Virus record (IMG/VR): IMGVR_UViG_3300037466_003019
Length of the DNA: 44,026 bases
Direction: 5' to 3' (one strand)
Source: a virus
Shown piece after piece: positions 2,967 to 44,026 of the stretch. Made by a program: the position numbers and the translations under genes. Numbering within the stretch: the first letter of the stretch is position 1; each line of letters opens with the position of its first letter. The notes below the pieces were generated by a model, which did not search any database, was not told the DNA's origin, and saw only the letters and a list, made by a program, of their open reading frames with translations.

Positions 2967-2993
2967 CCGGAGGGGGCGCGGGGGAGGTGCTGC

Positions 2994-5237: not shown

Positions 5238-5545
5238 TGGGGTGGGCGCTCGCCCTGGCGGCCATCGCCATCGCCTTCGCGGTGGCAGAGTGTCGCCGCG
5301 AGCGCGCTGCGCGCCGCCAGCTGGCCGCGCTGCAGGCGGTGGTGGCCCAACAGCAGCGCAGCCTGCACCGCCTGGTGAAGGACAACGTGCTGCTCGACCA
5401 CTGGTGCGGGCGCTTCCGCGACCTGTACATCGCCACCGTGGCGCAGATCGACCCGGCCTATGCCGCCGAGCTGCGCGCGAAGTGGGCGCAGGTGCAGGCG
5501 CCCAGCGCCGTGGCGCGCCTGCTGGAGCGCGTGCGCCATGGCTAA
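5237..5545 (+). CDS. Small membrane-anchored hypothetical protein
   Basis: TGATG overlap with the upstream gene. Hydrophobic N-terminus MGWALALAAIAIAFAVA followed by a helical region. Confidence 0.5.
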   Translation: MGWALALAAIAIAFAVAECRRERAARRQLAALQAVVAQQQRSLHRLVKDNVLLDHWCGRFRDLYIATVAQIDPAYAAELRAKWAQVQAPSAVARLLERVRHG

Positions 5546-16606: not shown

Positions 16607-17013
16607 CCAACGCGCAAGGCAAGGAGGAGCGGCTGTGGGATGTGGACGCGCTCTACCCGGACACCGACCTGCCGGCGTACTGCAAGCAATGCCGGCTGAC
16701 TGGCGGGTGCGGCACCCAATGCCCGCGCCCGCAGGTGCTGCCGGAGTGCCGGCCGGCGCTGGCCGCGTACGACCTGTGCGAGACGCAATGGCGTACGGGC
16801 TTCGGCTGCGTCACGGGGTTCGACTACAGCGCGTGCATCGCCACGCTGGCGCTCTACCTGCCGCGCTGGAAGGCCAGCGCGCCGCCGGGCGACCCGATCC
16901 ACGCCATGGAGGTGCCCGACCTGCTGGATGACCTGCGCACGATCGAGGAGGCCCTGCTCACCGCCTGGGCCGAAGTAGCCGAGCAGAAACGCACCGCGAG
17001 CCCTGACCCGTGA
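16133..17013 (+). CDS. Tail assembly chaperone frameshift product (gpGT-like, -1 slip at 16555-16561)
   Basis: The -1 frame reads ...GARKKLLAW...LWDVDALYPD...CETQWRTGFGCVTGFDYSACIATLALYL...TIEEALLTAW (DUF1799/gpT-like). It ends in a GTGA overlap with the tape-measure start. Confidence 0.6.
16555..16561 (+). other. -1 programmed frameshift slippery heptamer A_AAA_AAC
   Basis: Zero-frame codons are gga aaa aac. A -1 shift enters the frame that stays open to 17013. Confidence 0.6.
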
Positions 17014-21093: not shown

Positions 21094-21500
21094 ACGGCGC
21101 CATCCCCGACTGGGCGGCGCCCTACATCGGCCTTCCCTACGTGGACAAGGGCCGCACGCGCGAGGGCGTGGATTGCTGGGGCCTGGTGCGCCTGGTGCTG
21201 GCCGATGTGTTCCACGTGAACCTGCCTGACTACAGCGGCGCCTACCGGGATGGGGACGACTGGGGCGGCATCGCGCACGCCGTGCGCGCTGGCCTGGCCG
21301 AAGGCCCCTGGGTGAAGACCCAGCAGCCGCGTGCGGGTGACCTGCTCATCCTGAAGATCGCCGACCGCCCATGGCATTGCGGGGTGATGCTGAGCTCCAC
21401 CCGCTTCCTGCACGCCAAGCCGGGGGACTCGGTAGTGCATGAGCCGCTGGATACACCACGCTGGTCCAACCGGATCGAGGGGATCTACCGCCATGGCTGA
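21090..21500 (+). CDS. NlpC/P60-family tail tip protein (gpK-like)
   Basis: GVDCWGLVRLVL supplies the catalytic Cys and ...PWHCGVML the His. 136 aa. Confidence 0.75.
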   Translation: MNGAIPDWAAPYIGLPYVDKGRTREGVDCWGLVRLVLADVFHVNLPDYSGAYRDGDDWGGIAHAVRAGLAEGPWVKTQQPRAGDLLILKIADRPWHCGVMLSSTRFLHAKPGDSVVHEPLDTPRWSNRIEGIYRHG

Positions 21501-26921: not shown

Positions 26922-27430
26922 GCTACACGAAGCAGACCGACCCGATCCCCGGCATTGCCGATGCGCTGGCGCAGGCGCTGAAGCAGTCCGCCATCACCGA
27001 CCCCGTGGTCGACGACCTGCTCGCCGCCGGCAGCGCCGTGCAGCTGGAAACGGGCGACAAGGTGTGGGTGTCGAGCGTCATCCACGACAAGCCTGAGACG
27101 CTGCAGGTCGACGTCATCACCGTCGCCATCGCCTGTCGGCCGGATGTGACGCCGTGGTACAAGCCCAACGGCCAGGTGGTGTGCACGGTCTTCTGGCACG
27201 GCGTATGGGCGCAGGAGCTCGCCAACCTCACCACCAACACGGTGCGCAAGGCGCTGATGATGGTCGCCCTGGGCGAGCCGCAGCCGCAGGTGCCGATCCC
27301 CAACCCGGACCCGTTGCCGGCGCCGCAGGAGCAGGACGCGCTTCCCGGCCTGTCGCAGGCGCAGCTGTCGATCCGCCAGGCGATCACCGCGGCTACGGAA
27401 ATCACGCAGCCGGTGGAGGACGTCCTCTGA
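26918..27430 (+). CDS. Hypothetical protein (possible fibre accessory/assembly protein)
   Basis: 170 aa, ATGA-coupled to the fibre gene. Confidence 0.5.
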   Translation: MSYTKQTDPIPGIADALAQALKQSAITDPVVDDLLAAGSAVQLETGDKVWVSSVIHDKPETLQVDVITVAIACRPDVTPWYKPNGQVVCTVFWHGVWAQELANLTTNTVRKALMMVALGEPQPQVPIPNPDPLPAPQEQDALPGLSQAQLSIRQAITAATEITQPVEDVL

Positions 27431-28443: not shown

Positions 28444-29076
28444 ATGAGCACCGGCGCCTTTGAGATCAGCTACCCCCTCACGCTCGTGTACGAGCGGGGG
28501 TACAGCAACCATCCGCTGGACCCGGGCAAGGCCACCATGGACGGCGTGACGCAGGCGGTGTACGACGAGGACCGCCTGATGCGCGGCCTGCCGCGCCGCA
28601 GCGTGCGCGAGAGCACCGAGGCCGAGCGCCGCAGCATCTACCGCCGCCGCTACTGGGTCCTGGCCCAGTGCGACGAGTTGCCGAGCGGCGTGGATTACGC
28701 GGTGTTCGACTTTGCCGTGAACAGCGGCGTGGCCCGCGCGGTGAAGACCCTGCAGATGATCGTGGGCGCGGCCGCCGATGGGCAGTGCGGCCCGCGCACG
28801 CTGGCGCGCGTGCAGCGGCACGCCGCCACCTACGGCGTCACTGCGATCACCGACGAGCTGTGCCAGGAGCGCCTGCGGTTCCTGCAGGGCCTGCCGACCT
28901 TCGGCACGTTCGGCGAGGGCTGGACGCGCCGCGTGATGGGCCGCTGGCAAGGCACGCAGCGCGGCGACACCGGCGTGATCGATCGCGCCTTCGACATGGC
29001 GCAGGGCCGCGTACCGACCGCACCGGCTGCGCCCATGCCCACTCCCAAGACCTACGCCGCGAGGGCCGCTGCATGA
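28444..29076 (+). CDS. Endolysin, glycoside hydrolase family 108-like with C-terminal peptidoglycan-binding region
   Basis: The N-terminus YERGYSNHPLDPGKATMDGVTQAVY matches the GH108 signature (E.GYsnhp.D.GG.T..GIT). Confidence 0.8.
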   Translation: MSTGAFEISYPLTLVYERGYSNHPLDPGKATMDGVTQAVYDEDRLMRGLPRRSVRESTEAERRSIYRRRYWVLAQCDELPSGVDYAVFDFAVNSGVARAVKTLQMIVGAAADGQCGPRTLARVQRHAATYGVTAITDELCQERLRFLQGLPTFGTFGEGWTRRVMGRWQGTQRGDTGVIDRAFDMAQGRVPTAPAAPMPTPKTYAARAAA

Positions 29077-30316: not shown

Positions 30317-30712
30317 CTATCTGCAGGCGATATCGCCGGATTTCACGGATGCCTCGACGGCATCCAGATCTTGCTCACTCCATTGGAGCGAGTGTTTGAT
30401 CGTAGCGACCATCACGTGTGCGCCAGAATCGGTTGGCGTTACCGTCGCGCGGGCAACAATGACGCCGCTGCTGTTCGCCACATTGACCTCACCCGTGCGC
30501 GTGTCTGGATAGAGATTGCTGCTCACCACGTTCGGTGCAAATCCCACAAAGCCGCGCGCGCATTGCTGAAAAAAGCTGCTGGCATGGTGGTACGCCTGTT
30601 CGTACGCCATGCCTGGGACATCGAAGTCGCGACGAAGGCCGTTGCTTCCATCTGGCCGAACGCCACAACCCGCGACTAGCGACGCAGCTATGAGAACCAG
30701 AATCTGTCGCAT
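30317..30712 (-). CDS. Lipoprotein co-transcribed with the repressor (superinfection-exclusion candidate)
   Basis: MRQILVLIAASLVAGC contains a lipobox. Its start overlaps the repressor stop (TGATG on the minus strand). Lower GC. Confidence 0.6.
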   Translation of the reverse strand: MRQILVLIAASLVAGCGVRPDGSNGLRRDFDVPGMAYEQAYHHASSFFQQCARGFVGFAPNVVSSNLYPDTRTGEVNVANSSGVIVARATVTPTDSGAHVMVATIKHSLQWSEQDLDAVEASVKSGDIACR

Positions 30713-31110
30713 CACTCGCCCCCTGTCCGTTCCAGCTTGAGAAACTCCAGCAACGCCTCTTGCCGCTTGGCCTCCAGGGCACGATAGCGCATCAACAGCG
30801 CAAACTCCTTGGCATCCTTGGCACAACCCACCGATGCAGGCGGCGCCTTGTAGTCAGGCGGCCGGCCGTCCAAAAGGTTCAGTCCGGCTCGCGCCGTAGC
30901 GGCCACATCTGCGTCACCGCAGATCAGGTCGTCTAGAGAGATGCCAAGCGCCGCTCTAAGGCGTGGCCATTTGTCGAATCCCGGGTAGCTCCGCCCGTTT
31001 TCCCACGCCGCCACCGCTTGCTTCGTCATCCCGACCGCGAAGCCAAGCTGGTCCTGGGTCAGGTCGGCGGCGATCCGCGCGCGGCGCAGTCGATCGCCAA
31101 AGCTAACCAT
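30712..31110 (-). CDS. CI-like repressor (XRE-family HTH)
   Basis: MVSFGDRLRRARIAADLTQDQLGFAVGMTKQAVAAWENGRSYP. Divergent from a Cro-like gene. Confidence 0.75.
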   Translation of the reverse strand: MVSFGDRLRRARIAADLTQDQLGFAVGMTKQAVAAWENGRSYPGFDKWPRLRAALGISLDDLICGDADVAATARAGLNLLDGRPPDYKAPPASVGCAKDAKEFALLMRYRALEAKRQEALLEFLKLERTGGE

Positions 31111-31155
31111 GTCCGGACTCCCGACTTCAGTAGGCCGGGAGTGTACGGGGGCGTT

Positions 31156-31165
31156 TGACGCGTCA
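31156..31165. promoter_or_regulatory. Perfect 10-bp palindrome TGACGCGTCA (operator candidate) in the switch region
   Basis: A related half-site, TTGACACGTG, lies at 31179-31188. Confidence 0.3.
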
Positions 31166-31178
31166 GGGACAAAGGTGA

Positions 31179-31208
31179 TTGACACGTGAAGTAAACCATC
31201 CTTAGACT
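31179..31208 (+). promoter_or_regulatory. Sigma70-like promoter candidate (TTGACA-18 nt-TAGACT) for the Cro-like gene
   Basis: The -10 element ends 8 nt before the ATG at 31217, so the transcript would be nearly leaderless. Confidence 0.35.
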
Positions 31209-31216
31209 CGCATCCC

Positions 31217-31474
31217 ATGGACGAGTCACCCACAAATCCCATCCGCGCCGCCCGACTGAAGCGCCGCCTGTCCCAGCAAGGGCTGGCGGCCAAGGTGAAG
31301 GTCTCCAAGGCGGCCGTCAGCGCGTGGGAATGCGGCAAGGCCGAGCCCGCTCCGCGGACGGCCTTGGCCCTTGTGAAGGTTTTGCCAACGCTGCGGTTCG
31401 AACAGATCTACCCGGTAGTGCCTCCTTCCGACGAGGAGCAGGGCGGCGACCCAGTGCAGAGGGCCGCCGCATGA
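31217..31474 (+). CDS. Cro-like XRE-family HTH protein
   Basis: IRAARLKRRLSQQGLAAKVKVSKAAVSAWECGK. Confidence 0.7.
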   Translation: MDESPTNPIRAARLKRRLSQQGLAAKVKVSKAAVSAWECGKAEPAPRTALALVKVLPTLRFEQIYPVVPPSDEEQGGDPVQRAAA

Positions 31475-32238
31475 ACCTCCTCGGCTACGTGCGCGTGTCC
31501 ACCGAGGAGCAGGCCCGCGAGGGCGTGAGCCTGGGCCAGCAGGTCGAGCGGCTGCGCGCGTATTGCGCGCTGCATGGGCACCAGCTGGTCGGCGCGGTGC
31601 TCGACGAGGGCGTGAGCGCCAGCGTGCCGCTGGCCAAGCGCGAGGGCGGCCGCACACTGCTGGCGCGCCTGAAAGCCGGCGATGCGGAAGGCGTGGTGGT
31701 GGTGCGGCTGGACCGGCTGTTCCGCGACGCGCTGGACGGGCTGATGTTTTTCCGCGGGCCGGCCGAGCGGCTGGGCGTGGCCGTGCACAGCATCAGCGAG
31801 CTGATCGACAGCAGCACGCCGGCCGGGCGCCTGAGCCTGACCATTCAGCTGGCCGCGGCGCAGTACGAGCGCGACCTGGCCGTGCAGCGCGCGACCGAGT
31901 GCAACGCCGCACTGCGGGAGCAGGGCAGGGTGTACGGCCACGTGCCCTACGGGTGCGTGGCGGTGGGGGAGGGCGACGGCCGCCACCTGGCGCGCGACCC
32001 GCAGACCTGGTGCCACCGCGAGGCGGCCGTGCGCCTGCTCGACAAGCACAGCCTTCGCGGCGCCGCCCTCGAACTGGCGGCGCGCGGCATCCCCAGCCCC
32101 ACGGGCAAGCCGCGCTGGTCGCCGAACACGTTGCGCGCGTTGCGCACCCACCACGACTCCCTCCGCAAGCTACCGATGGCTCAGCCTGCCACCGGTGATA
32201 CCGCCTCGCCTGACCCGGAGGTTTCACCCCATGCTTGA
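31471..32238 (+). CDS. Serine recombinase (resolvase domain plus partial large-serine-recombinase 'recombinase' domain)
   Basis: MNLLGYVRVSTEEQAREGVSL supplies the catalytic Ser motif. Also ...VVVVRLDRLFRD..., ...SLTIQLAAAQYERD..., then GIPSPTGKPRWSPNTLRALR. ATGA-coupled to the Cro-like gene. Confidence 0.8.
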   Translation: MNLLGYVRVSTEEQAREGVSLGQQVERLRAYCALHGHQLVGAVLDEGVSASVPLAKREGGRTLLARLKAGDAEGVVVVRLDRLFRDALDGLMFFRGPAERLGVAVHSISELIDSSTPAGRLSLTIQLAAAQYERDLAVQRATECNAALREQGRVYGHVPYGCVAVGEGDGRHLARDPQTWCHREAAVRLLDKHSLRGAALELAARGIPSPTGKPRWSPNTLRALRTHHDSLRKLPMAQPATGDTASPDPEVSPHA

Positions 32239-32488
32239 GTTGCAGGAAAGCGCCGCGCCGGCGCGTGCGCGCCACGTGTTCGCCAGCCAGGCGCATGCAG
32301 CAGCGCACGAGGTGATCACCCTGCGTGAGCTGCTGGCACGGGCCCGTTGCGAGGGGCTGGCGACCGAAGGCCTGCGCGGCCTGGTGCTGGGCATGATCGC
32401 CGAGCGCGGGCGGTTTCTTGCCGCCGCCGGCGCGGACGTGGCCAGCGACCTGATCGAGCTTGCCGGGGAGGAGCGCCGCCGTGCGTGA
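32231..32488 (+). CDS. Hypothetical protein
   Basis: 85-aa ORF overlapping the previous stop by 8 nt. Confidence 0.4.
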   Translation: MLELQESAAPARARHVFASQAHAAAHEVITLRELLARARCEGLATEGLRGLVLGMIAERGRFLAAAGADVASDLIELAGEERRRA

Positions 32489-33053
32489 GACCCGCGCCCA
32501 GGTGATCGCCGAGCACGTGACGTTCGCCCTGACCCGCAGCGCGCTCACCGAGCGCACCTACGCGCAGGCGGTGGCGGACCTGTACCACGAGCGCACGCCG
32601 CTGCATGCGCGCACCGTGCCGTTCCAGCACAGCAAGGACCCGTATGCCGACAGCGAGGCCAACCGGCAAACGGTGAAGCGCATGCTGGACGGCCGCGTGC
32701 GCATGGCGGTGGACGTGGAGGAGGCGCTGGTGCTGGCGCTGCCGCAGCCCTACCGCGACCACGCGCTGACCGAACTGAGCGCGCGGCTGGGCCTGCTGGC
32801 GGTGCATTGCCCCTCGCACCTGGCCGCCGGGCAGCAGCACCAGGTGGGCGAGCTGCTTAAGCACGTGGGCGAGAGCATGCAGCGGCTGGCGCCCCTGCTC
32901 GAGGACGGCGTGATCGACGCCCGCGACGCCGCCTACGCCGACAGCGCGCTGCGCGAGCTGGATGTGCTGCTGGGCCAGGTGGTGACGCTGCGCAGCGCCA
33001 TCCGCCAGTACGCCAAGGGCGAGCCCTGCGACGCCGTGGAGGACGTGCCGTGA
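32481..33053 (+). CDS. Hypothetical early protein
   Basis: GTG start with GGGGAGGAG upstream. 190 aa of protein-like composition. Confidence 0.5.
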   Translation: MRETRAQVIAEHVTFALTRSALTERTYAQAVADLYHERTPLHARTVPFQHSKDPYADSEANRQTVKRMLDGRVRMAVDVEEALVLALPQPYRDHALTELSARLGLLAVHCPSHLAAGQQHQVGELLKHVGESMQRLAPLLEDGVIDARDAAYADSALRELDVLLGQVVTLRSAIRQYAKGEPCDAVEDVP

Positions 33054-34309: not shown

Positions 34310-34677
34310 TGCAGTCCCTGAACTCTTGCCGGGGTAACCGGACACAACTCGCCCAAGCCGTGGCCCTGCGCTTCGGCGTTGACCCGAACGCTGCGTATCC
34401 AGTTTCCGCATTTATCGTTCAACTGCTTGAGCAGCAGGGTGACGACGGAGCTAATGGCATCGACCAGGCCATCGCAGGAACGATGGGCCCTGACGATTAC
34501 TACGACCTGCTCGAAGGGTTCCAGATTGGGCACCGCCAGATCCGTACATGGGTGCGGGAAGGCCGCGCCGGCGAACCAGTCGCGCTGACTACGCGGGGGC
34601 GGGAGCTTGCGCGTCGGATCAACGATGAGCTCGTAATTTTCACCGGCGCAGATTCGACGATGGAGGCCACCCCGTGA
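34309..34677 (+). CDS. Hypothetical protein
   Basis: 122 aa, TGATG-coupled, lower GC. Confidence 0.45.
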   Translation: MQSLNSCRGNRTQLAQAVALRFGVDPNAAYPVSAFIVQLLEQQGDDGANGIDQAIAGTMGPDDYYDLLEGFQIGHRQIRTWVREGRAGEPVALTTRGRELARRINDELVIFTGADSTMEATP

Positions 34678-35636
34678 CCTCCAACGTCATCACCATCGCC
34701 GGCCACAGCGTTACGCCCGTTACGCTGACCCAGGCCATCGCGCACTTCCTGCAGCGCAAGCGCCTGCGCAACGCCGCGCTGAACACCTTGGTGGCCTATG
34801 CGGGCGACCTGCAGGACTTCGCCGACTTCGCCGCCACGCAGGGCGTGGAGCTGGTCGGCCTGGTGGGCGAGCGGCTGGTCGGCCGCTGGCTGGACCGGCT
34901 CGGCCACCGCGGCCTGTCGCCGCGCAGCCAGGCACGCAAGCTGACCGTGCTGCGGCAGCTGGTGCTGCACAGCATTCGCGAGGGCTGGCTGAGCCACGAC
35001 CCGACCAAAGATGACCGTGTGCACTTCGTGCAATTGCCGAAGATCGCACCGGAGCTGTCGCCGCTGCTCACCATGTTGGATGCACTGCCCACCCGCACGC
35101 CGCAGGACCTGCGCGACCGCGCCATGCTGCGCCTGACGCTGGATGCAGCCTTGCGCGTGGGCGACCTGACCGGCCTGGACGTGCCAAACCCGGTGCGGCC
35201 GCCCTTCAACACGGTGGACCTCGGCCGCCGTGAGGTTCGCACGCTGGGCAAGGGCCGCAAGCCGGCCGTGGTGCCCATCAACCAGCGCAGCGCCGAATGG
35301 CTGGGCGACTGGCTGCGCGTGCGTGACCGCATGGCCCGCGAGGGCGAGTGCGCGATCTTCGTGAGCAATCGCGGCACGCGCATCACCCGTCAGCAGATCT
35401 ACAACCGCGTGCGCCAGCTGGGCGCGCAGCACGGTCTGCCGGACCTGCACCCGCACCTGCTGCGCCACCGCCGCGTAGGTGACGTGGTGGAGCAGCTGGG
35501 CCTGGAGGCCGGCCAGCACCTGGCGCGCCACAAGAGCAAGTCCACCACCGCCGCCGTGTACGGCGCCCAGGCCGCCGCCGTGGTGCGCCACGTGCTACGC
35601 GAGCGAGCGGACCTGGATGCAAGGAGGGTGGGCTGA
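34674..35636 (+). CDS. Tyrosine recombinase (XerD-like), third of three
   Basis: RDRAMLRLTLDAALRVGDLTGL, TLGKGRKPAVVPI, HPHLLRHRRVGDVV, ARHKSKSTTAAVY. Confidence 0.8.
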   Translation: MTSNVITIAGHSVTPVTLTQAIAHFLQRKRLRNAALNTLVAYAGDLQDFADFAATQGVELVGLVGERLVGRWLDRLGHRGLSPRSQARKLTVLRQLVLHSIREGWLSHDPTKDDRVHFVQLPKIAPELSPLLTMLDALPTRTPQDLRDRAMLRLTLDAALRVGDLTGLDVPNPVRPPFNTVDLGRREVRTLGKGRKPAVVPINQRSAEWLGDWLRVRDRMAREGECAIFVSNRGTRITRQQIYNRVRQLGAQHGLPDLHPHLLRHRRVGDVVEQLGLEAGQHLARHKSKSTTAAVYGAQAAAVVRHVLRERADLDARRVG

Positions 35637-36160
35637 TGGATGTGCTGACCGTTACCGCCGGCGCGGTGCTCTCCGAGTGCGGCCGGTACCGCTACAGCCT
35701 GACGCGCCACGTGGGCGAGCAGGGCCCGCTCTACGGCTTCGTAGGCGTGAACCCCTCGACCGCCGACGCCGAGATCGATGACGCGACCGTGCGCAAGTGG
35801 CGCGGCTTCGTGCAGCGCTGGGGCGGCCGCGGCTTCGTGGTAGCCAACCTGTTCGCCTGGCGCGCCACGGACGTGACCGCACTGGCGTGCCCGCCGGATC
35901 CCGTTGGTACCGGCAACATGGCGGCGCTGGCAGCGATGGTGGACGCCTGCGATGTAATCGTGCCGTGCTGGGGGAGCCGCATGAAGCTGCCCCGGGCGCT
36001 GTGGCCGCAGATCAACCGCGTGCGCGCGCAGCTGCTGGCCAGCGGCAAACCCGTCATGTGCTTCGGGCACGCCAAGAGCGGCGACCCGATGCATCCGCTG
36101 ATGCTGGGCTATGACACGCCGCTGGTGCCGCTGGTGGCGCCGATGGCAGGTGCCGCATGA
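35636..36160 (+). CDS. DUF1643-family protein
   Basis: CGRYRYSLTRHV...FVGVNPSTADAEIDDATVRKWRGF...VVANLFAWRATD...DPVGTGN...VPCWG matches the family pattern. AAGGAGGG RBS. Confidence 0.7.
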   Translation: MDVLTVTAGAVLSECGRYRYSLTRHVGEQGPLYGFVGVNPSTADAEIDDATVRKWRGFVQRWGGRGFVVANLFAWRATDVTALACPPDPVGTGNMAALAAMVDACDVIVPCWGSRMKLPRALWPQINRVRAQLLASGKPVMCFGHAKSGDPMHPLMLGYDTPLVPLVAPMAGAA

Positions 36161-37275: not shown

Positions 37276-37524
37276 ATGGCCGACCACCTCAGCCCCCAGC
37301 ACGAGGCGATCCTGACCGAGCTGCGCAAAGGCCCGGCCACCACCATGCAGCTGATCAAGCGCTGCGGCGTCATCTGCGTGCAGGCCCGCCTGCACGAGCT
37401 CAAGACCGACCACGGCTACGCCATCGGCATGCAGATGGTGACCGTGCGCGACCGCCGGCGCGCCACCGTGCGCGTCGCCCAGTACAGCCTGCTACCGCAG
37501 CGCGCCCACAAGCGCGCCGCCTGA
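37276..37524 (+). CDS. Winged-helix-like hypothetical protein
   Basis: HEAILTELRKGPATTMQLIKR... Confidence 0.45.
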   Translation: MADHLSPQHEAILTELRKGPATTMQLIKRCGVICVQARLHELKTDHGYAIGMQMVTVRDRRRATVRVAQYSLLPQRAHKRAA

Positions 37525-37542
37525 CCTGAGGAAGCCCCTTCG

Positions 37543-37884
37543 ATGGAACTGAATATCCAGCCAGGGCAAAAGGCCCTGATCACTACCAACGCGTGGTTCT
37601 ACGGGCCGGACGGCCGCCAGTACCACGCCGTGTTTGGCACGGTGAAGGCCATCCGCGCCGACGAGGAAACCCTCGGCATCAAGTCCAACCGCAACAGCAC
37701 CAACTGGTACGTCGAGATCGGCAACATGACGATCGCCGGGTGCCAGGTGCACTACGCCATTCGCTGCGAGACCTGCAATACCGGTGAGACCGAGGCATGG
37801 ACTTCCGATGCTGCGAACGGGGTGCGCGTTTTCCGCCGCCCGAGCTCGATCTACAACGCCGATGCCGACGTGCGGGAGGGCTGA
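37543..37884 (+). CDS. Hypothetical protein
   Basis: 113 aa of non-biased composition. Confidence 0.5.
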   Translation: MELNIQPGQKALITTNAWFYGPDGRQYHAVFGTVKAIRADEETLGIKSNRNSTNWYVEIGNMTIAGCQVHYAIRCETCNTGETEAWTSDAANGVRVFRRPSSIYNADADVREG

Positions 37885-37887
37885 GCC

Positions 37888-38805
37888 ATGTTCTTCCGCA
37901 ACCTCACCCTGATGCGTTTCTCGCCCGCCGTAGCGCAGGACCTGGCGCGCCTCGACGAGGCGCTGGCCGATCACCGGCTGCGCCCCTGCGGCCCGCTGGA
38001 GCTGTTCACCAAGGGCTTCGTGCCGCCGATCGGCCGCGAGGCCGACTCGCCGCTGACGCACGCGGTGCGGAACTTCACCTGGTTCACCGTGGGCGGCGCG
38101 GACAAGCTGCTGCCCGCCGCGGTGGTCAACGACGAGCTGCACCGCCGCGTGCAGAAGATCGCCGAGGAGGAGGGCCGCAAGGTCGGCGGGCGCGAGCGCA
38201 AGCGCATGAAAGAGGACCTGCTGAACGAGTTGCTGCCGCGCGCCTTTGTGCGTGACTCGCGCCTGTCCGGCTACGTCGACACCCGCGAGGGCTGGCTGGT
38301 GCTGGACACCGCCGGCCGCAGGCCCGCGGAGAACGCGCTGACGCAGTTGCGCGAGGCGCTGGGCAGCTTCCCGGCTGTGCCGCTGGCGCCGGAGGAGGGG
38401 CCGCGCGTGCTGCTCACCGACTGGCTGGCCAACGGCACGCTGCCGGCCGGCCTGAGCCTGGGCGACGTGGTGGAGTTGCGCGACCCGGGCAGCACCACTG
38501 GCGCCATCGCCCGCTGCCGCCGGCAGGACCTGGAGAGCGAGGAGATCAAGGAGCACCTGCGCAATGGCAAGCAGGTGTTCCAGCTCGGCCTGGTGTTCGA
38601 CGACCGCCTGAGCTTCGTGCTGGGCGAAGACCTGGTGGTGCGCCACCTGAAGTTGCTGGACGTGGTGTTGGACGAGCTGGCCGACAGCGCGCCCGATGCC
38701 GCCGCCGAACTGGATGCCCGGTTCGCGCTGTTCACCCTGGAGGTGGAGCGCCTGCTCGGCCGCATGGCCGAGTGGTTTGCCCTGCCGCGCCCGAAAGACG
38801 CTTGA
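37888..38805 (+). CDS. rdgC: Recombination-associated protein RdgC
   Basis: The MFFRNLTLMRF N-terminus and the ~305-aa length are typical of RdgC. Confidence 0.8.
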   Translation: MFFRNLTLMRFSPAVAQDLARLDEALADHRLRPCGPLELFTKGFVPPIGREADSPLTHAVRNFTWFTVGGADKLLPAAVVNDELHRRVQKIAEEEGRKVGGRERKRMKEDLLNELLPRAFVRDSRLSGYVDTREGWLVLDTAGRRPAENALTQLREALGSFPAVPLAPEEGPRVLLTDWLANGTLPAGLSLGDVVELRDPGSTTGAIARCRRQDLESEEIKEHLRNGKQVFQLGLVFDDRLSFVLGEDLVVRHLKLLDVVLDELADSAPDAAAELDARFALFTLEVERLLGRMAEWFALPRPKDA

Positions 38806-38858
38806 CCCTGACCCGCCCCTTGAACGCCGCACCCGCGGCCAACCGGAAAGGAATACCC

Positions 38859-39383
38859 ATGCAACAGCCCAACATCCATATCGACCGCATGACCGTCCAC
38901 GTGCACGGCCCTGAGCCCGAAAGCAGCGGGCTGCTGGTCGCGCCGCTGATCCAGGCGGTCTTCGGAGACGTCAAAAAGGCCTCGGGCAAGAGCGAGGCCG
39001 AACGCTTCGAGCTGCGCCCGGACGGCACCACGGTCGACCATAAGACCGGCCTGCAGTGGGCCACCGAGGAAAGCCCCAAGCAGCTGAATTTCGAGGAGGC
39101 CGAGAAGCACTGCGCCGCGCTGCGTCTCGGCGGCTTCGACGACTGGCGCCTGCCCGACCTGGAGGAGCTGGAGTCCATCCGCGACCTCGGCCGCCACAAC
39201 CCCTGCATCGATCCGAAGTTCTTCAAGAGCAACGCCAACTGGGTGTGGTCGCGCACGCCCACGGCGTGGTCTTCGGGCTGCGCGTGGGTCGTCTACTTCT
39301 ACTACGGCAACGTGAACTACGACGACCGGTACGGCAGGGCGTTCGTCCGGGCTGTGCGTCGCGTGTCGCCGGCCGGTCAGTGA
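38859..39383 (+). CDS. DGR target protein 1 (DUF1566 / C-type-lectin-fold)
   Basis: DHKTGLQWATEE...EAEKHCAALRLGGFDDWRLPDLEELESI...WVWSRTPTAWSSGCAW-VVYFYYGNVNYDDRYG-RAFVRAVRRV. AAAGGA RBS. The longest ORF starts at 38772. Confidence 0.9.
   Translation: MQQPNIHIDRMTVHVHGPEPESSGLLVAPLIQAVFGDVKKASGKSEAERFELRPDGTTVDHKTGLQWATEESPKQLNFEEAEKHCAALRLGGFDDWRLPDLEELESIRDLGRHNPCIDPKFFKSNANWVWSRTPTAWSSGCAWVVYFYYGNVNYDDRYGRAFVRAVRRVSPAGQ
39263..39377 (+). repeat. DGR variable repeat VR1
   Basis: 115 nt aligned to the TR, with 10 mismatches, all at TR adenines. The variable window is 39288-39336. Confidence 0.95.
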
Positions 39384-39425
39384 TTGGCCTTTTGGCCCAT
39401 CCCTCCATTCACAAGGAAACGCTCC

Positions 39426-39854
39426 ATGGAAACCATGATCAAGATCGGTGCGCAGGGCGAGCAGCTGCCGGCCGAGGCCACCCAGTGGGACGCCGTGCTG
39501 CTGCCGCAGCTCGGCCTGATGTTCAGCGCCACCGACACGGGCGAGGGGGAACTGACCTTCAAGCAGGCCGAGGCGGCCTGCGCCAGCCTCACGCTCGCCA
39601 GCTTCAGCGATTGGCGGATGCCGGAACGGCAGGAGCTGGAGGCGATTCTGGACCTGACTCGCTACGAGCCGGCCATCGACCCGGCGTTCTTCCGCGACAC
39701 CAAGAGCGACTGGTACTGGACCCGCACGCCTACGGCGTGGTCTTCGGGCTGCGCGTGGATCGTCAGCTTCGACGACGGCGGCGTGGGCAACGGCACCCGG
39801 AACCTCAGGGCGTTCGTCCGGGCTGTGCGTCGCGTGTCGCCGGCCGGTCAGTGA
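39426..39854 (+). CDS. DGR target protein 2 (DUF1566 / C-type-lectin-fold)
   Basis: METMIKIG...ASFSDWRMPERQELEAIL...WYWTRTPTAWSSGCAW-IVSFDDGGVGNGTRNL-RAFVRAVRRV. AAGGA lies 8 nt upstream. Confidence 0.9.
   Translation: METMIKIGAQGEQLPAEATQWDAVLLPQLGLMFSATDTGEGELTFKQAEAACASLTLASFSDWRMPERQELEAILDLTRYEPAIDPAFFRDTKSDWYWTRTPTAWSSGCAWIVSFDDGGVGNGTRNLRAFVRAVRRVSPAGQ
39734..39848 (+). repeat. DGR variable repeat VR2
   Basis: 12 mismatches to the TR, all at TR adenines. Confidence 0.95.
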
Positions 39855-39896
39855 TTGGCCTTTTGGCCCATCCCTCCATTCACAAGGAAACGCTCC

Positions 39897-40325
39897 ATGG
39901 AAACCATGATCAAGATCGGTGCGCAGGGCGAGCAGCTGCCGGCCGAGGCCACCCAGTGGGACGCCGTGCTGCTGCCGCAGCTCGGCCTGATGTTCAGCGC
40001 CACCGACACGGGCGAGGGGGAACTGACCTTCAAGCAGGCCGAGGCGGCCTGCGCCAGCCTCACGCTCGCCAGCTTCAGCGATTGGCGGATGCCGGAACGG
40101 CAGGAGCTGGAGGCGATTCTGGACCTGACTCGCTACGAGCCGGCCATCGACCCGGCGTTCTTCCGCGACACCAAGAGCGACTGGTACTGGACCCGCACGC
40201 CTACGGCGTGGTCTTCGGGCTGCGCGTGGTTCGTCGGCTTCCTCGACGGCTACGTGGGCAACAACGCCCGACACGGCAGGGCGTTCGTCCGGGCTGTGCG
40301 TCGCGTGTCGCCGGCCGGTCAGTGA
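39897..40325 (+). CDS. DGR target protein 3 (duplicate of target 2 apart from the VR)
   Basis: Identical to target 2 except for the VR residues FVGFLDGYVGNNARHG. Confidence 0.9.
   Translation: METMIKIGAQGEQLPAEATQWDAVLLPQLGLMFSATDTGEGELTFKQAEAACASLTLASFSDWRMPERQELEAILDLTRYEPAIDPAFFRDTKSDWYWTRTPTAWSSGCAWFVGFLDGYVGNNARHGRAFVRAVRRVSPAGQ
40205..40319 (+). repeat. DGR variable repeat VR3
   Basis: 15 mismatches to the TR. 14 are at TR adenines. The other is a synonymous G->A (cgg->cga) at 40271. Confidence 0.95.
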
Positions 40326-40351
40326 TCGGCTTCTCGGCCTGAGCTAACACC

Positions 40352-40786
40352 ATGACCTTCACCCTCCCACCCGCCGTGCGCCTGGCCGAAGGCTTGGCTC
40401 GGGACATCGAGCAGGCCGTCGCGCGGTTCCAGCGCGCCTACCGCTATACGTTCGGCGCGGATCTTCGCGCCCGGGCGTGGGCGGTGTTGCGCACCGCCCA
40501 CCGGGCGGCGCGCGACCAGGCGCGCCGGGGCCATTGGCTGACGCAACTGGTGTGGGAGGTGGACGAGCTCAAGTTGAGCCTGCAGTTGGGCAAGCAGTTG
40601 CACGCCTTCGTCAGCTTCGCGCAGTTCGAGGCGCTGGCGCGGGCGGCCGCGCAGCTGGGCCGCCAGGTGGGCGGCTGGCACAAGCAGCAACACCCTCAAG
40701 GCCAGAGTGGTCCGGCGCGAGCGCCGGGCCAGCGTGCCATGACACTGAGTTCCCGTGCCGCCTCGAACCGTGAGGCCAATCGATGA
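40352..40786 (+). CDS. avd: DGR accessory variability determinant (Avd, four-helix-bundle type)
   Basis: 144 aa, helical and Arg/Ala-rich (...AVARFQRAYRYTFGADLRARAW...ELKLSLQLGKQLHAF...FEALARAAAQLGRQVGGW), in the canonical position between VR and TR. Confidence 0.8.
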   Translation: MTFTLPPAVRLAEGLARDIEQAVARFQRAYRYTFGADLRARAWAVLRTAHRAARDQARRGHWLTQLVWEVDELKLSLQLGKQLHAFVSFAQFEALARAAAQLGRQVGGWHKQQHPQGQSGPARAPGQRAMTLSSRAASNREANR

Positions 40787-42141
40787 CGACGCCGCGCTAC
40801 TCCACCATGGAATGCGCGGCCGGGTCGCAAGTGCACGGGCGGGCGTGGTCTTCGGGCTGCGCGTGGATCGTCAACTTCAACAACGGCAACGTGAACAACA
40901 ACAACCGGAACAACAGGGCGTTCGTCCGGGCTGTGCGTCGCGTGTCGCCGGCCGGTGAGTGTCGGGGTGAGGTGAGCCTGCGGGCGCTATACGAAGCATG
41001 GCGCGCCGCTCGCCGCAAGAAGCAACCCAGTGCCAACCAGCTAGCGTTCGAGCTGCGCTCGATCGACCGCCTGCTGGACCTGCAGGAACAACTCAACGCC
41101 GGCCGCTGGTCGCCGGCCCCCACCACGTGCTTCGTGGCCACGCGGCCCAAGGCGCGCGAGATCCATGCGCCGGACTTTGCCGACCGTGTGGTGCACCACT
41201 GGCTGGTGCCGCAGCTGGAGGCGATCTACGAGCCTGGTTTCATCCACGACAGCTACGCCAACCGCAAGGGCAAGGGCACGCACGCGGCGGTACGCCGCCT
41301 GCAACAGTTCGTGCGCCAGGTGCACAGCGGACAGGGCGGCGGCTGGTACCTGCAGCTGGACGTGCACAACTTCTTCAACTCGATCCACCGCGCGACGCTG
41401 TACGGCATGCTCAAGGCGCGTCTGTCCCGCGCCGGCTTGGGTGAAGTGCCGATGCGGGCCGTGCACGCGCTGCTGCGCCACCCGGTGCAACAACAAGGCG
41501 TCATCCACCGCGCCACGCCGGCAGAGCGGGCACTGGTGCCGCCGCACAAACGGCTGGAGAACGCACCGCCCGGGTGCGGCTTGCCGATCGGCAATCTGTC
41601 GTCGCAGTTCTTCGCCAACGTGTACCTGGATGCGCTGGACCAGTTCGTCAAGCACACGCTCAAGGCCAAGCGCTACCTACGCTACGTGGACGACTTCGTG
41701 CTGGTGCACCGCGACCGGGGCCAGCTCGAGCAATGGCACGCGGCGATCGAACGCTTCCTCGGGCAGACGCTTCGGCTCGGCCTGAAGGCCGACCAGCGCC
41801 TGCGCCCGCTGTCCGCCGGCATCGACTTCCTGGGCTACGTGGTCTACCCCACGCACACCCGCGTGCGGCCGCGCGTGCTGCGCCACGCGACGGACAGCCT
41901 GCAGCGCTGGCAGCGGGCGCACCGCGCGGGCGGCGGCTACAGGGGCACGCCGGAGGACTTCCAGCGCCTCGATTCCATCTGGGCCAGCTACCAGGGCCAC
42001 TTCGCGCACGCGAACAGCTGGCGCCTGCAGCAGCGCCTGCTGCGGCGGCGCCCCTGGCTCGCCGCGCTCGCCAACCCACGGCGCCGCTTCCATCACCGCC
42101 TGAGCGGGCGGCGCCTCACTGTGAGGGTTTCACATCCATGA
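40783..42141 (+). CDS. DGR reverse transcriptase (ORF as tracked; the functional start may be GTG 40972, downstream of the TR)
   Basis: LPIGNLSSQFFANVYLD is the DGR-type motif and RYLRYVDDFVLVH carries YxDD at 41683-41694. The N-terminal core LRALYEAWRAARRKK...PKAREIHAPDFADRVVHHWL is also present. ATG 40783 overlaps the avd stop (ATGA), but the first ~60 codons are simply the TR read in frame. Confidence 0.92.
   Translation: MTTPRYSTMECAAGSQVHGRAWSSGCAWIVNFNNGNVNNNNRNNRAFVRAVRRVSPAGECRGEVSLRALYEAWRAARRKKQPSANQLAFELRSIDRLLDLQEQLNAGRWSPAPTTCFVATRPKAREIHAPDFADRVVHHWLVPQLEAIYEPGFIHDSYANRKGKGTHAAVRRLQQFVRQVHSGQGGGWYLQLDVHNFFNSIHRATLYGMLKARLSRAGLGEVPMRAVHALLRHPVQQQGVIHRATPAERALVPPHKRLENAPPGCGLPIGNLSSQFFANVYLDALDQFVKHTLKAKRYLRYVDDFVLVHRDRGQLEQWHAAIERFLGQTLRLGLKADQRLRPLSAGIDFLGYVVYPTHTRVRPRVLRHATDSLQRWQRAHRAGGGYRGTPEDFQRLDSIWASYQGHFAHANSWRLQQRLLRRRPWLAALANPRRRFHHRLSGRRLTVRVSHP
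40842..40956 (+). repeat. DGR template repeat (TR)
   Basis: 115 nt. The A-free flanks (25 nt at the 5' end, 41 nt at the 3' end) are identical to all three VRs. The central window 40867-40915 holds 22 adenines: 10 AAC codons plus one ATC and one AGG in the VR reading frame. Homology continues with one mismatch to about 40961. Confidence 0.95.
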
Positions 42142-43043
42142 GCCAATACACACCGGAACAGGTTGACCTGCGCAATCTCATCTACGCCGACCTGCAGTTC
42201 GAGCATCGCGGCGAAACCGATCTCAAATGGGAAGAGATTCAGGCCTTGGTGGAGCGTGGCTGGATGCACGAAGGTCAGAATAACGACGAGTTCGACCTCA
42301 CCGACGAGGGCCGAACCGTTCTCGCAGATGCCCTCTCCCAGCTGCAGCAGGGAGAGCAGCGGGCGGTGATTGATGGCAAGTACGACAACGTGCTGGTGCC
42401 GTTCGCTCGCCTGATGGCGAAGGAGCTGCACGCCAACGCTGGCAAGGGTGATCGCCCAGGGTGGCTGAGCATGACGCCGGCCACCGGCATGCTGGAAATC
42501 TACTACCACACGGCCAAGCTGCAGAAGGCGGTGAAGGGCGGCAACTGCGACGGGATCCGCGAGTTCGCCGCCGACGTGGCGAACATGGCGATGATGCTGC
42601 TGGACGCGTGCGGCGGCTTGGCCGTGGACGAGCGGATGGACCGGGCGGGCTCGTTCCAAGAACGCGTGTCTGAGTGGATGGAGCAGTGCTTCTTGCCATC
42701 CCTCTACAGCAACATGACCGAGCGCGGTGATCGCCTCCTCGAGGAGGTGCTGGAGCTACTGCAATCCAAGGGCTATGACCGCACCCGGGTCGCCACGCTG
42801 GTCGACTACGTGTGGGGTCGCCCGGTGGGCGAGCCGGCGCAGGAAGTGGGCGGCGTTATGGTGACGCTGGCCGGGTTCTGCTGGATCGCCGGCCTGGACA
42901 TGCACGCCGCGGGCGACGCCGAGCTGGCACGCATTAACGCGCCCGAGGTGATGGAGAAGATCCGGCGCAAGCAGGAGGCCAAGAACGCGCTGCACTTCGA
43001 CACGCCGCTGCCAGGGCAGGTCAAGGTGCTGGGGGCGGCATGA
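42138..43043 (+). CDS. MazG-like nucleotide pyrophosphohydrolase-domain protein (tentative), ATGA-coupled to the RT
   Basis: 302 aa. Helical segments LMAKELHANAGKGDRPGW...IREFAADVANMAMMLLD and ERGDRLLEEVLELLQSKGYD...EVGGVMVTLAGF resemble all-alpha NTP-PPase motifs. Confidence 0.4.
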   Translation: MSQYTPEQVDLRNLIYADLQFEHRGETDLKWEEIQALVERGWMHEGQNNDEFDLTDEGRTVLADALSQLQQGEQRAVIDGKYDNVLVPFARLMAKELHANAGKGDRPGWLSMTPATGMLEIYYHTAKLQKAVKGGNCDGIREFAADVANMAMMLLDACGGLAVDERMDRAGSFQERVSEWMEQCFLPSLYSNMTERGDRLLEEVLELLQSKGYDRTRVATLVDYVWGRPVGEPAQEVGGVMVTLAGFCWIAGLDMHAAGDAELARINAPEVMEKIRRKQEAKNALHFDTPLPGQVKVLGAA

Positions 43044-43054
43044 AGCACGAACCG

Positions 43055-43279
43055 CTACGCGTCGATGAAGTCGCGCGCCAGCGTGTGACCCGCGGTCACT
43101 GTCCCTTCGAGCGTGGTGAACCGGCGACCCTCTTTGTCGCGGATCTTCGGCAGGCCTTCGATGTCGATGGCATCGATCCAGTAGCAGCCCGTGCCCTCGT
43201 AGATCGTGAGGATGTAGGCCTTACCTTTGTAGACGCCATCGCGCAGGTAAATCGGCGCCTTGCTTCGTGTCCCGCTCAT
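43055..43279 (-). CDS. Small hypothetical protein
   Basis: MSGTRSKAPIYLRDGVYKGKAYILTIYEGTGCYWIDAIDIEG... has normal composition, with a GAGGGA RBS. Preferred over the antisense + ORF 43040-43312. Confidence 0.5.
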   Translation of the reverse strand: MSGTRSKAPIYLRDGVYKGKAYILTIYEGTGCYWIDAIDIEGLPKIRDKEGRRFTTLEGTVTAGHTLARDFIDA

Positions 43280-43308
43280 GCGTCCCTCGCTTTGCTGCGG
43301 AGTCCCCA

Positions 43309-43557
43309 ATGATGGTTGAGCATAGCGTTGATCTCGAAGCTGGTGCGCACGTAACGCTGGATGGCGCTCAGGCCGTCTACGCCATCGTGGCTCGGCGCCT
43401 AGACGCCACCACGCCTTCGGGCGTGACCTTCCGGTTGCTACCGGATGCCGGCGGCTGGGTAGACGCCGGCCGGGTGACCTACGCCGCGGGCTTCGTCGAA
43501 CGGCAGAGGTTCGACCCCGAGGAGGAACTGGACCCCGACGCCGAGTGGGAGTGGTAA
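43309..43557 (+). CDS. Hypothetical protein
   Basis: 82 aa, with GGAG 8 nt upstream. Confidence 0.45.
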   Translation: MMVEHSVDLEAGAHVTLDGAQAVYAIVARRLDATTPSGVTFRLLPDAGGWVDAGRVTYAAGFVERQRFDPEEELDPDAEWEW

Positions 43558-43560
43558 CCG

Positions 43561-43878
43561 ATGCGCACGTGCCCACGCTGCCAGCAGACCACCGCCAGCA
43601 CCTGGTGCTGCGGCCTGGACCTGACCGCCCGCAAGCGCTGGCGGATGACGCGTGATCGCGTGCGCCTGATCCACGTGCTGGCGCTGGCGCGCAAGGGACT
43701 CACCGACGAGCAATACCGGCTGCGCCTGGGCGCGGTGGGCGTCGATTCCAGCCTGAAGTTGTCGCGGGACCAGTTCCACGCGCTACTGCGCGGGCTTCGC
43801 GCGCTTCCGGACTCGCCCAGCTGGCTGAGTGGCGCCCGCCATGCCCGCCGGCGCGGGCGCATCGCGAGGGCGGGCTGA
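43561..43878 (+). CDS. GemA/Mu gp16-like (DUF1018-like) regulatory protein
   Basis: RVRLIHVLALARKGLTDEQYRLRLGAVGVDSSLKLSRDQFHALLRGLRAL. Confidence 0.55.
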   Translation: MRTCPRCQQTTASTWCCGLDLTARKRWRMTRDRVRLIHVLALARKGLTDEQYRLRLGAVGVDSSLKLSRDQFHALLRGLRALPDSPSWLSGARHARRRGRIARAG

Positions 43879-44026
43879 GCCATGGCGCGGATGCTTCGCT
43901 ATGGCCGCCCGCAGGTGCTCAATGTCGGCACCCAGGTAGCACGCCGTGCTCTCCAGCGCACTGTGCCCGAGCATCTGCATGATGGCGGGCAGGGGACAGC
44001 CGTGGTGGAGCAGGGTGGTGGCCATG
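43783..44026 (-). CDS. int: Tyrosine integrase, C-terminal part (continuation of the 1-953 fragment; 43901-44026 duplicates 1-126)
   Basis: HLLRASMATTLLHHGCPLPAIMQMLGHSALESTACYLG gives H-x-x-R, H and the catalytic Y. The stop is at 43783. Confidence 0.85.
   Translation of the reverse strand, partial: MATTLLHHGCPLPAIMQMLGHSALESTACYLGADIEHLRAAIAKHPRHGSARPRDAPAPAGMAGATQPAGRVRKRAKPAQ
43901..44026. repeat. Terminal direct repeat, copy 2 (identical to 1-126)
   Basis: Same 126 nt as the window start. Confidence 0.97.

Follow-up and report, generated by a model that had tools for sequence, protein, structure and literature searches.

Small DUF1566-type targets of a phage diversity-generating retroelement lie outside the tail module, beside recombination and integration genes, in this and related phages

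The 44,026-nucleotide stretch of viral DNA held in IMG/VR record IMGVR_UViG_3300037466_003019 (the whole of it being called the window here) carries a diversity-generating retroelement (DGR) in which three consecutive small genes, T1, T2 and T3, are followed by a gene for the accessory protein Avd, a template repeat (TR) and a reverse transcriptase (RT) gene (Table 1). An initial annotation of this DNA had placed three DUF1566-type targets of 142-174 aa at these positions, and its coordinates proved exact: GC content at third codon positions (GC3) amounts to 0.89-0.91 in the three frames, as for coding frames in this 69% GC genome, and the start codons are backed by Shine-Dalgarno-like motifs as well as by orthologues with identical start residues (those of T1 being 52-73% identical to it). 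The family assignment held equally well, with T1-T3 scoring 80.9-92.5 bits against Lcl_C/DUF1566 (PF07603), whose Pfam gathering threshold is 34.9.

The TR aligns without gaps to a 115-nt 3'-terminal stretch, the variable repeat (VR), of each target open reading frame (ORF). Of the 37 mismatches between TR and VRs, 36 fall at TR adenines, a focus that is not due to chance because adenines occupy only 22 of the 115 TR positions; the sole remaining difference is a G at TR position 40908 that reads A at 40271, in VR3. The adenine-containing codons of the TR permit ~7e12 amino-acid combinations and zero reachable stop codons. T2 and T3 lie in 471-nt tandem units (39384-39854 and 39855-40325, the 42-nt upstream spacer included) that are identical outside the VR, all their 13 differing positions being located between 39759 and 39805, inside the VR and at adenine sites. 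This indicates, indirectly, that diversification went on after the duplication. The DGR is apparently active, and the near-identity of both units reflects either a very recent duplication or ongoing homogenisation. T1, T2 and T3 are real targets of a canonical DGR formed by Avd, TR and RT, and they are the only targets of this genome. Tail genes were considered as additional targets and rejected, since a search for further VRs over the whole window, tail fibre genes included, found none.

From position 40957 onward TR and VR part, as expected for the sites of initiation of mutagenic homing on either side (IMH* and IMH, respectively). Behind VR1 and VR2 only a 4-bp GGCC/TTTT/GGCC stem is formed, with folding energies no better than those of shuffled sequences. 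Avd matches Pfam bAvd with 33.4 bits, under the gathering score of 40, and finds a clearer counterpart in PHROGs (Table 1). The RT displays the motifs IGNLSSQ and YVDD, which correspond to the I/LGxxxSQ motif and the YxDD catalytic box. Its frame is open from an ATG overlapping the Avd stop codon (ATGA) and reads across the TR in the frame of the targets (...AWSSGCAWIVNFNNGNVNNNNRNNRAFVRAVRRVSPAG...), with RT homology proper beginning near 40960-40975. Gene callers likewise give RTs of ~450 aa that include the TR in related genomes, the alternative RT start being a GTG near 40972. Among PADLOC defence models, the RT drew only generic cross-matches to RT and defence-associated RT (DRT) entries, and nothing was matched by the targets, Avd or their neighbours; a reading of the cassette as a defence system was therefore not supported.

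Structure prediction, which had been proposed as a check on the targets, returned for T1 and T2 a compact C-type-lectin-like domain nearest to the C-terminal domain of Legionella Lcl. The AlphaFold2 model of T2, based on an 84-sequence alignment, shows one compact domain spanning residues 1-140, with a mean predicted local distance difference test score (pLDDT) of 94.6. For T1 the mean pLDDT is 86.9, exceeding 93 over residues ~50-170 and falling to 59-70 in the N-terminus. For both models the best Foldseek match is 8q4e, the Lcl C-terminal domain (E 1e-5, template modelling (TM) score 0.60-0.65), followed by C-type-lectin-like domains and by the tip of the Bdellovibrio fibre Bd2740 (8oks). 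Each of T1-T3 is accordingly modelled as essentially one domain of C-type-lectin-like fold, with no extra domain predicted in T2 and T3. T2 and T3 are acidic, with isoelectric points (pI) of 4.6-4.8, and the invariant residues of the family (W, L, P, G) are mostly found in the core, no conserved surface patch being obvious outside the IMH-encoded C-terminus.

The ~47 N-terminal residues that precede the domain in T1 have no Pfam match and are modelled with low confidence. T1-type long paralogues share in this region a strand-turn-strand-like motif of ~16 residues (M..P.I.I.h..IH.) with alternating hydrophobic residues, exemplified by NIHIDRMTVHVH, SISIHIKKATIHV and ITIHAEHVTLNLH and followed by a variable Pro/Ala-rich linker. 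Such paralogues of 156-200 aa are present in the window (38859-39000) and in the related loci L004, L006, L010, L013, L022 and L023, and a long T1-type paralogue is usually paired with a bare short one of ~142 aa. The motif, too short for a meaningful sequence search, could be an oligomerisation or docking element.

Regarding their position, the targets lie on a long + strand array that begins at about 31.1 kb, where a repressor-like and a Cro-like gene diverge. The order found is CI-like/Cro-like, CII-like, recombinases, RdgC, T1-T3, Avd-TR-RT, an ORF without assigned function and, on the opposite strand, the integrase. RdgC is directly upstream of T1, across a 53-nt gap that holds no + strand terminator-like site, and the gaps around the target genes measure 26-53 nt. 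A promoter and terminator scan of positions 37400-44026 gave zero + strand sites, promoters being sought as the sigma-70 consensus only, which is weak in a 69% GC genome. Because of the short gaps and the absence of a + strand terminator-like site, T1-T3 appear embedded in the early operon, and we infer from this arrangement that they and the RT belong to its Cro side. T1 begins 11.9 kb past the end of the last tail gene and the integrase is 3.5 kb beyond T3, which bears out the first description of the targets as lying after rdgC, outside the tail module and near the integrase. The neighbours of the targets in the window are RdgC, recombinases and genes without assigned role, and no known anti-defence family was identified.

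The same layout is found well beyond the window. RT homologues sharing 57-90% identity are present in ~35 genomes, mostly of Rhodanobacteraceae and Lysobacteraceae, together with other Gammaproteobacteria and some Betaproteobacteria, and in nearly all of them one to four small DUF1566 ORFs precede Avd and then RT. VRs were recognized in 62 of 68 small ORFs (33 loci), with 8-19 adenine-site mismatches and 0-3 others, and adenine-biased VRs also occur in remote target copies situated 3-6 kb upstream, among early genes. By length, these ORFs form a cluster at ~140 aa (34 ORFs of at most 155 aa) and a second group of 156-210 aa (20 ORFs), often as a pair of one long and one short. Two prophages, L001 of Frateuria and L003 of Rhodanobacter glycinis S10, are syntenic with the window through the early genes, RdgC, T1, T2, Avd, RT and integrase, and their similarity to it ends at the integrase.

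Eight metagenomic phage contigs with precomputed Pfam labels (L043, L044 and L046-L051) were also compared. L044, L046, L047 and L049 display a Cro-like and/or CI-like (Peptidase_S24) gene, early ORFs, Lcl_C genes, Avd, RT, an excisionase-like gene and the integrase; the target sizes in L044 (173, 143 and 143 aa) mirror the pattern of the window, and in L044 and L047 a tRNA-Asn gene stands right behind the integrase. L048 and L051 keep the same early order through RT, with L048 ending in a serine recombinase and L051 continuing into two DNA methyltransferases. L050 presents ERF, SSB, RdgC, ParB_N, two Lcl_C genes, Avd, RT and integrase, and L043 a Cro-like gene, early ORFs, two Lcl_C genes, Avd and RT, the contig stopping ~3 kb past RT, before any integrase.

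Upstream of the cassette (18 loci), the PHROG counts are led by repressors, RecE-like exonuclease, RdgC, Erf, NinB, ParB-like and replication O-like proteins, and none of the 25 commonest families is a tail family; Phage_integrase (10), DUF5131 (5) and DNA_methylase (4) lead the Pfam families downstream of RT in 23 genome loci. In all 11 other phage or prophage contexts inspected (the isolated Burkholderia phage Magia, L001, L003 and the eight contigs), the cassette sits between repressor/recombination genes and the xis/int side. Target genes are held by the late structural block in 0 of 12 contexts, window included, and a target is sometimes the first gene after the immunity region. The comparison of homologous DGR-positive phages suggested at the outset hence reveals a recurrent placement, and, by gene order, location in the early arm is the rule for a whole RT clade of temperate proteobacterial phages.

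Some further genes accompany the cassette. A DUF1643 gene is found within a few kb of it in otherwise unrelated loci, namely the window, L003 (13171-13665), L019 (8052-8561) and L024 (18329-18799). DNA methyltransferases adjoin RT in L051 and L048, and DUF5131 and DNA methyltransferase genes recur just downstream of RT in L048, L050 and L051. The ORF that follows RT in the window (42126-43043) has homologues downstream of RT in L014 and L016 as well, its sequence giving no clue to a role in the DGR.

Export signals were then considered for every possible upstream start of T1-T3, and no signal peptide, lipobox, twin-arginine motif or transmembrane helix was detected by an in-house heuristic (not SignalP) that recognized the OmpA, PhoA and Lpp controls and missed the twin-arginine translocation (Tat) leader of TorA; Tat was checked in T1-T3 only, through the twin-arginine motif search. 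Kyte-Doolittle hydropathy over 19 residues peaks at 0.99, and the sole hydrophobic 10-mer begins at residue 24-25, behind an acidic N-region. With the same heuristic, zero Sec-like leaders or lipoboxes were found in the 126 closest homologues. The lack of signal peptide and lipobox first read from the N-termini of the targets was confirmed. On the contrary, cellular DGRs of the same RT clade (L028-L031) have DUF1566 targets with clear leaders (L029, 165 aa, MLMFTLHFTRLGLTFLLSAALLSTTQAAERF...; L031, 164 aa, MFKMNRTRIALAVSLGLLAFLPSVQAADRY...) or multidomain targets of 855-1471 aa. These four loci, from Burkholderiaceae, Methylococcaceae and Polaromonas, have RTs 51-58% identical, look cellular rather than phage-borne, and in one of them a target sits downstream of RT. 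By their sequences, the phage-borne targets appear to be the same domain as their cellular cousins minus the leader.

The missing leader bears on function in one direction only. It disfavours display on the lysogen surface, but it is silent on a virion role, because virions, tail proteins included, assemble in the cytoplasm. A cleavable signal peptide or a known tail-attachment domain, either of which had been named as making the targets ordinary, was sought in T1-T3 and not found; nonetheless, the N-terminal strand-turn-strand motif of T1-type proteins keeps the idea of docking alive.

A profile search of a 90%-clustered protein collection gave 1242 matches at E <= 1e-5, most of 140-149 aa and many on contigs of 35-57 kb. 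The close homologues of greater length consist of two Lcl_C domains in tandem, and no tail- or fibre-type domain was found fused to close homologues. Predicted viral structures show the fold in two settings, as a protein by itself (115-185 aa) and as the terminal part of a fibre-like protein (594-1417 aa). The DUF1566 domain as a whole (61,405 representatives in an exhaustive profile search) is dominated by giant multi-repeat surface proteins and is little informative on the subfamily of T1-T3. Searching 50,697 phage records with T2 (tblastn) gave no match, and searching the IMG/VR viral contigs with T1 no confirmed relative; an exact look-up of the contigs of T1 likewise came back empty. The 44-kb phage contig L045 encodes a 149-aa close homologue of T2 at 3640-4089, surrounded by small early-type ORFs; the flanks retrieved (3.6 kb upstream to the contig end and 10 kb downstream) contain neither Avd nor RT, which indicates that stand-alone family members without a nearby DGR exist.

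The remainder of the window frames these observations. Nearly all its genes are on the + strand, its two ends are identical over 126 nt (1-126 = 43901-44026), and the minus-strand tyrosine-integrase ORF runs unbroken over the junction; the contig is thus a circular or terminally redundant complete genome, and positions at the window end adjoin the window start. This integrase is 90% identical to the one closing the syntenic Frateuria prophage L001. The late block is lambda-like, with a small-terminase-like gene, portal, head genes, tape-measure, J-like fibre and endolysin, and the tape-measure and J-like proteins suggest a siphovirus-like, lambda-like temperate phage. Behind the J-like gene, the 859-aa and 170-aa ORFs presumably encode a side fibre together with its tip or assembly factor, and it is among them that the actual receptor-binding proteins of the phage would most naturally be sought.

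Table 1. Features of the window, with positions in the 44,026-nt stretch.
Feature	Position	Strand	Remarks
Tyrosine integrase	43783-44026 (3' part) joined to 1-815 (5' part)	-	Pfam Phage_integrase E 1.5e-23
Helicase-loader-like gene	2037-2660		Past the circular junction
Tape-measure protein	17010-20261		Late block
J-like central fibre	21493-24342		Late block
859-aa ORF	24342-26921		Directly after J-like gene; no Pfam or PHROGs match
170-aa ORF	26918-27430		Follows 859-aa ORF; no Pfam or PHROGs match
Endolysin	28444-29076		Late block
Repressor-like helix-turn-helix (HTH) ORF	30712-31338	-	Immunity switch; PHROG repressor/regulator matches
Cro-like HTH gene	31217-31474	+	Immunity switch; PHROG repressor/regulator matches
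Resolvase		+	In operon after Cro-like gene
CII-like activator	32460-33053	+	In operon
Tyrosine recombinase	34674-35636	+	In operon
DUF1643 gene	35636-36160	+	In operon, which also has an HTH_39 gene
RdgC-like recombination-associated gene	37888-38805	+	Pfam RdgC E 2.9e-94; phrog_724
T1	38859-39383	+	174 aa; ~47 N-terminal residues, then Lcl_C/DUF1566 domain; Pfam Lcl_C E 2.9e-26, residues 56-167
VR1	39263-39377	+	3' end of T1; 91% identity to TR; 10/10 mismatches at TR adenines
T2	39426-39854	+	142 aa; bare single Lcl_C domain; Pfam Lcl_C E 3.6e-23
VR2	39734-39848	+	In T2; 12/12 mismatches at TR adenines
T3	39897-40325	+	142 aa; tandem duplicate of T2; Pfam Lcl_C E 1.2e-22
VR3	40205-40319	+	In T3; 15 mismatches, 14 at TR adenines and one G>A
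Avd accessory protein	40352-40786	+	Four-helix-bundle type; phrog_3206 'Avd protein of DGR' E 1e-15
RT	40783-42141	+	DGR reverse transcriptase; phrog_1423 E 1.5e-98; Pfam RVT_1 E 3.2e-15
TR	40842-40956	+	115 nt; 22 adenines; 12 variable codons (10 are AAC)
ORF after RT	42126-43043		phrog_14118 E 3e-50 and phrog_8593 E 1e-40, both families without assigned function

Other traits of this genome touch the DGR less directly. The 654-aa ORF at 5460-7424 occupies the position of a large terminase, yet it has no PHROG or Pfam match, and over ~1 kb its DNA is 80% identical to that of a 'hypothetical protein' from Microcystis phage MACPNOA1 (KY697807), which is surprising in a genome of 69% GC. Four site-specific recombinase genes (2853-4130, 31471-32238, 34674-35636 and 43783-815), three of them tyrosine recombinases of the Phage_integrase family and one a resolvase-type serine recombinase, are an unusually high number for a 44-kb phage; they may serve integration, dimer resolution or inversion. 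When 25 kb of the window was compared with isolated phages by megablast, a single unrelated 1-kb match came up.

Among known systems, the machinery of the window resembles the BPP-1 DGR (mtd-avd-TR-brt) in having an Avd-type gene, an AAC-rich TR upstream of RT and adenine-specific mutagenesis of a 3'-terminal VR in a C-type-lectin fold, and the window RT aligns with BPP-1 brt at 31.6% identity (tblastn, E 1e-35). The BPP-1 target Mtd is a 381-aa multi-domain trimer on the tail fibres. Unlike BPP-1, the window has three targets of 142-174 aa, essentially of one domain each and of the DUF1566/CLec2 class, in a putative early operon. Anchoring domains of the Mtd type were not found, T2 and T3 being a single domain over residues 1-140 and the N-terminus of T1 lacking a family match, nor was a location in or next to the late tail module, either in the window or in the 11 related contexts. 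The contrast with the BPP-1 layout drawn in the initial annotation stood as to the genes lying outside the tail module, but not as something peculiar to this phage, since it recurs in 11 other contexts and is partly published.

Indeed, DUF1566 targets form category d (DUF1566/CLec2) of Wu et al. 2018, with 14% of DGRs; about half of them are short proteins comprising DUF1566 alone, and eight stand in tandem in one Stenotrophomonas DGR (PMC5758913). The Legionella pneumophila target LdtA is a lipoprotein of the cell surface whose variable end is exposed (PMC5758913); it shares with T1-T3 the class of the VR-bearing domain, whereas neither leader nor lipobox is present in T1-T3. As for Lcl, its C-terminal domain binds glycans as a trimer and lacks disulfides, and DUF1566 has been suggested to bind carbohydrate and/or to promote trimers (PMC11162425). 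T1 and T2 share with this domain (8q4e) the Pfam family, the CLec-like fold and the absence of disulfides. On the contrary, Lcl is undiversified and type II-secreted, is borne on a collagen-like stalk and uses a basic surface to bind host glycosaminoglycans, while T2 and T3 are acidic, stand-alone and hypervariable.

Two phages come closer in layout. The isolated, temperate Burkholderia phage Magia has, like the window, two 'lectin fold' targets outside the tail module in an early operon: gp57 (126 aa) comes first in the exo/RecT operon, and gp47 (120 aa), gp46, the Avd gp45 and the RT gp44 stand upstream of xis-int. By hhalign, gp47 and gp57 are remotely homologous to T2 (96%, E 4e-9 and 7e-9), and the Magia RT is 42% identical to that of the window. 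Magia differs in having shorter, more divergent targets, one of them 6 kb from the cassette, and no T1-type long paralogue. It is a myovirus, whose genome note calls both targets 'relatively short' and guesses at host range (PMC7883833). In Quimbyvirus, the second DGR target, ORF84, is non-structural and lies in a counter-defence island, a role in phage-host conflict having been proposed from its genomic neighbourhood (Benler et al. 2021, PMC8008677). ORF84 is like T1-T3 a phage DGR target outside the structural module; nonetheless, Quimbyvirus, a Bacteroides phage, also has a structural target beside the tail fibres, which has no parallel in the window, and differs in host phylum and target architecture. 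More generally, DGR targets are typically multidomain, with viral clades 1, 4 and 6 mostly diversifying tail proteins and clade 3 being mixed (Roux et al. 2021). Short DUF1566-only targets (Wu et al. 2018) and a non-structural phage target (Benler et al. 2021) are thus already published; in the open-access literature, no paper was found that describes a whole clade in which every target is a leaderless single domain encoded in the early arm near the integrase.

The reading preferred here, with a probability of roughly 0.45, is that T1-T3 are early-made, soluble, possibly trimeric variable binding modules in the infected cell, and not tail receptor-binding proteins of the Mtd type. Adenine-specific mutagenic retrohoming would rewrite their C-terminal binding face (12 codons, ~7e12 variants). 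Because of the gene order in the Cro-side operon, cytoplasmic synthesis of the proteins would be expected soon after infection or induction, alongside recombination and replication functions and not with the late tail genes. Each incoming genome would bring three variants, expressed early, and one that bound a host or rival factor differing from strain to strain, such as a defence component, would gain a direct reward. The adsorption apparatus, composed of the J-like protein and the 859-aa ORF, would be complete without them.

Support for this intracellular reading comes from (i) the conserved early position and the interspersion with recombination and regulatory genes, (ii) the single-domain build and the loss of leaders relative to cellular cousins, (iii) independence from tail type, with Magia a myovirus and the window siphovirus-like, (iv) the direct genotype-phenotype coupling that an early-expressed binder would have and (v) precedents in Quimbyvirus and in the putative conflict-system sensors diversified by cellular DGRs (PMC10907252). 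A bolder version would have this clade of temperate proteobacterial phages diversifying early cytoplasmic lectin-fold proteins as antibody-like intracellular binders against host defence or rival-phage proteins, with two to four variants per genome and selection acting directly on the infecting genome; stated in this form, it is doubtful.

Several points weigh against intracellular binding. Early timing is deduced from gene order, the promoter scan was limited to the sigma-70 consensus in a 69% GC genome, early synthesis would be compatible with incorporation into virions, and no intracellular partner can be named. BPP-1, the one experimentally dissected phage DGR, diversifies a receptor-binding protein, and in Bacteroides 'Bacuni' phages DUF1566-type VR differences track host range (PMC8143477). 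The DUF1566 fold forms the distal end of fibre-like proteins such as one of 594 aa with Peptidase_S74, one of 1034 aa with collagen repeats and a 1417-aa 'tail fiber protein'. Finally, the N-terminal motif and linker of T1-type proteins and the pairing of long and bare paralogues would fit a tether or docking element.

Several of these points feed the alternative that T1-T3 are virion accessory adhesins, made in the cytoplasm and attached to tail tip, fibre or capsid, possibly via the T1 N-terminal motif or as long/short hetero-trimers, where they would vary the recognition of hosts or surface glycans as Mtd does. An export signal would be unnecessary for virion proteins, BPP-1 and the Bacuni phages set the prior, the fold tips phage fibre-like proteins and the Bdellovibrio fibre (8oks), glycans are bound by the trimeric Lcl C-terminal domain (PMC11162425), and both the conserved N-terminal motif with its linker in long paralogues and the recurrent long/short pairing would find a use. 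However, the compact single domain predicted for T2 and T3 would leave nothing spare for docking, fusions to a tail domain are missing among close homologues, and the invariant residues, mostly in the core, leave no obvious conserved surface patch outside the IMH-encoded C-terminus. Moreover, the targets lie in early/recombination operons in 12 of 12 contexts inspected and never in the late structural block, and one target family is shared by phages with unrelated tails (the myovirus Magia and the siphovirus-like window). Weighing both sides, we regard attachment to the virion as unlikely, although it is a serious competitor to the intracellular reading.

Improbable, to a greater degree, is that T1-T3 are accessory ('moron') proteins expressed by the lysogen to its own benefit, for example to sense or block superinfecting phages from within the cytoplasm. 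The end of a prophage nearest the integrase typically hosts morons, and prophage L001 ends right past its integrase; cellular DGRs diversify putative conflict-system sensors (PMC10907252), and the homologues in cellular DGRs are exported surface proteins. Nonetheless, the absence of a leader speaks against surface display, no effector domain and no match to a PADLOC defence model accompany the targets, and, with no separate promoter-like site or flanking terminators, they lie in an operon downstream of the Cro-like gene that the repressor should silence in lysogens.

It is very improbable that T1-T3 are lectins set free at lysis to coat debris, exopolysaccharide or neighbouring cells, as leaderless cytoplasmic proteins might be, since such a public good breaks the link between genotype and phenotype and would select DGR variants weakly, or that the cassette is a selfish mobile element without benefit to the phage, as modular transfer of an Avd-RT-target module 57-90% identical across genera with unrelated flanks might suggest, given that intact ORFs, a stop-avoiding AAC-rich TR, a retained duplicate and hundreds of family members point to selection for function.

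Almost every phage DGR has been interpreted as a tropism switch, and in the RT clade described here the cassette and all its targets are found in the early recombination/integration arm, a pattern that spans Rhodanobacteraceae, Lysobacteraceae, Burkholderia and other hosts. 'Non-structural DGR targets' are thereby turned from a vague category into a defined and testable class, with culturable carriers in phage Magia, Rhodanobacter glycinis S10, Dyella mobilis and Dyella lutea. If the targets were virion parts, the finding would amount to the ordinary relocation of an adhesin gene. If, as preferred here, they act inside the infected cell, they would constitute the first programmable binder system of a bacterial virus against its host, and would offer a compact natural scaffold, with 142 aa and ~7e12 variants, for binder engineering.

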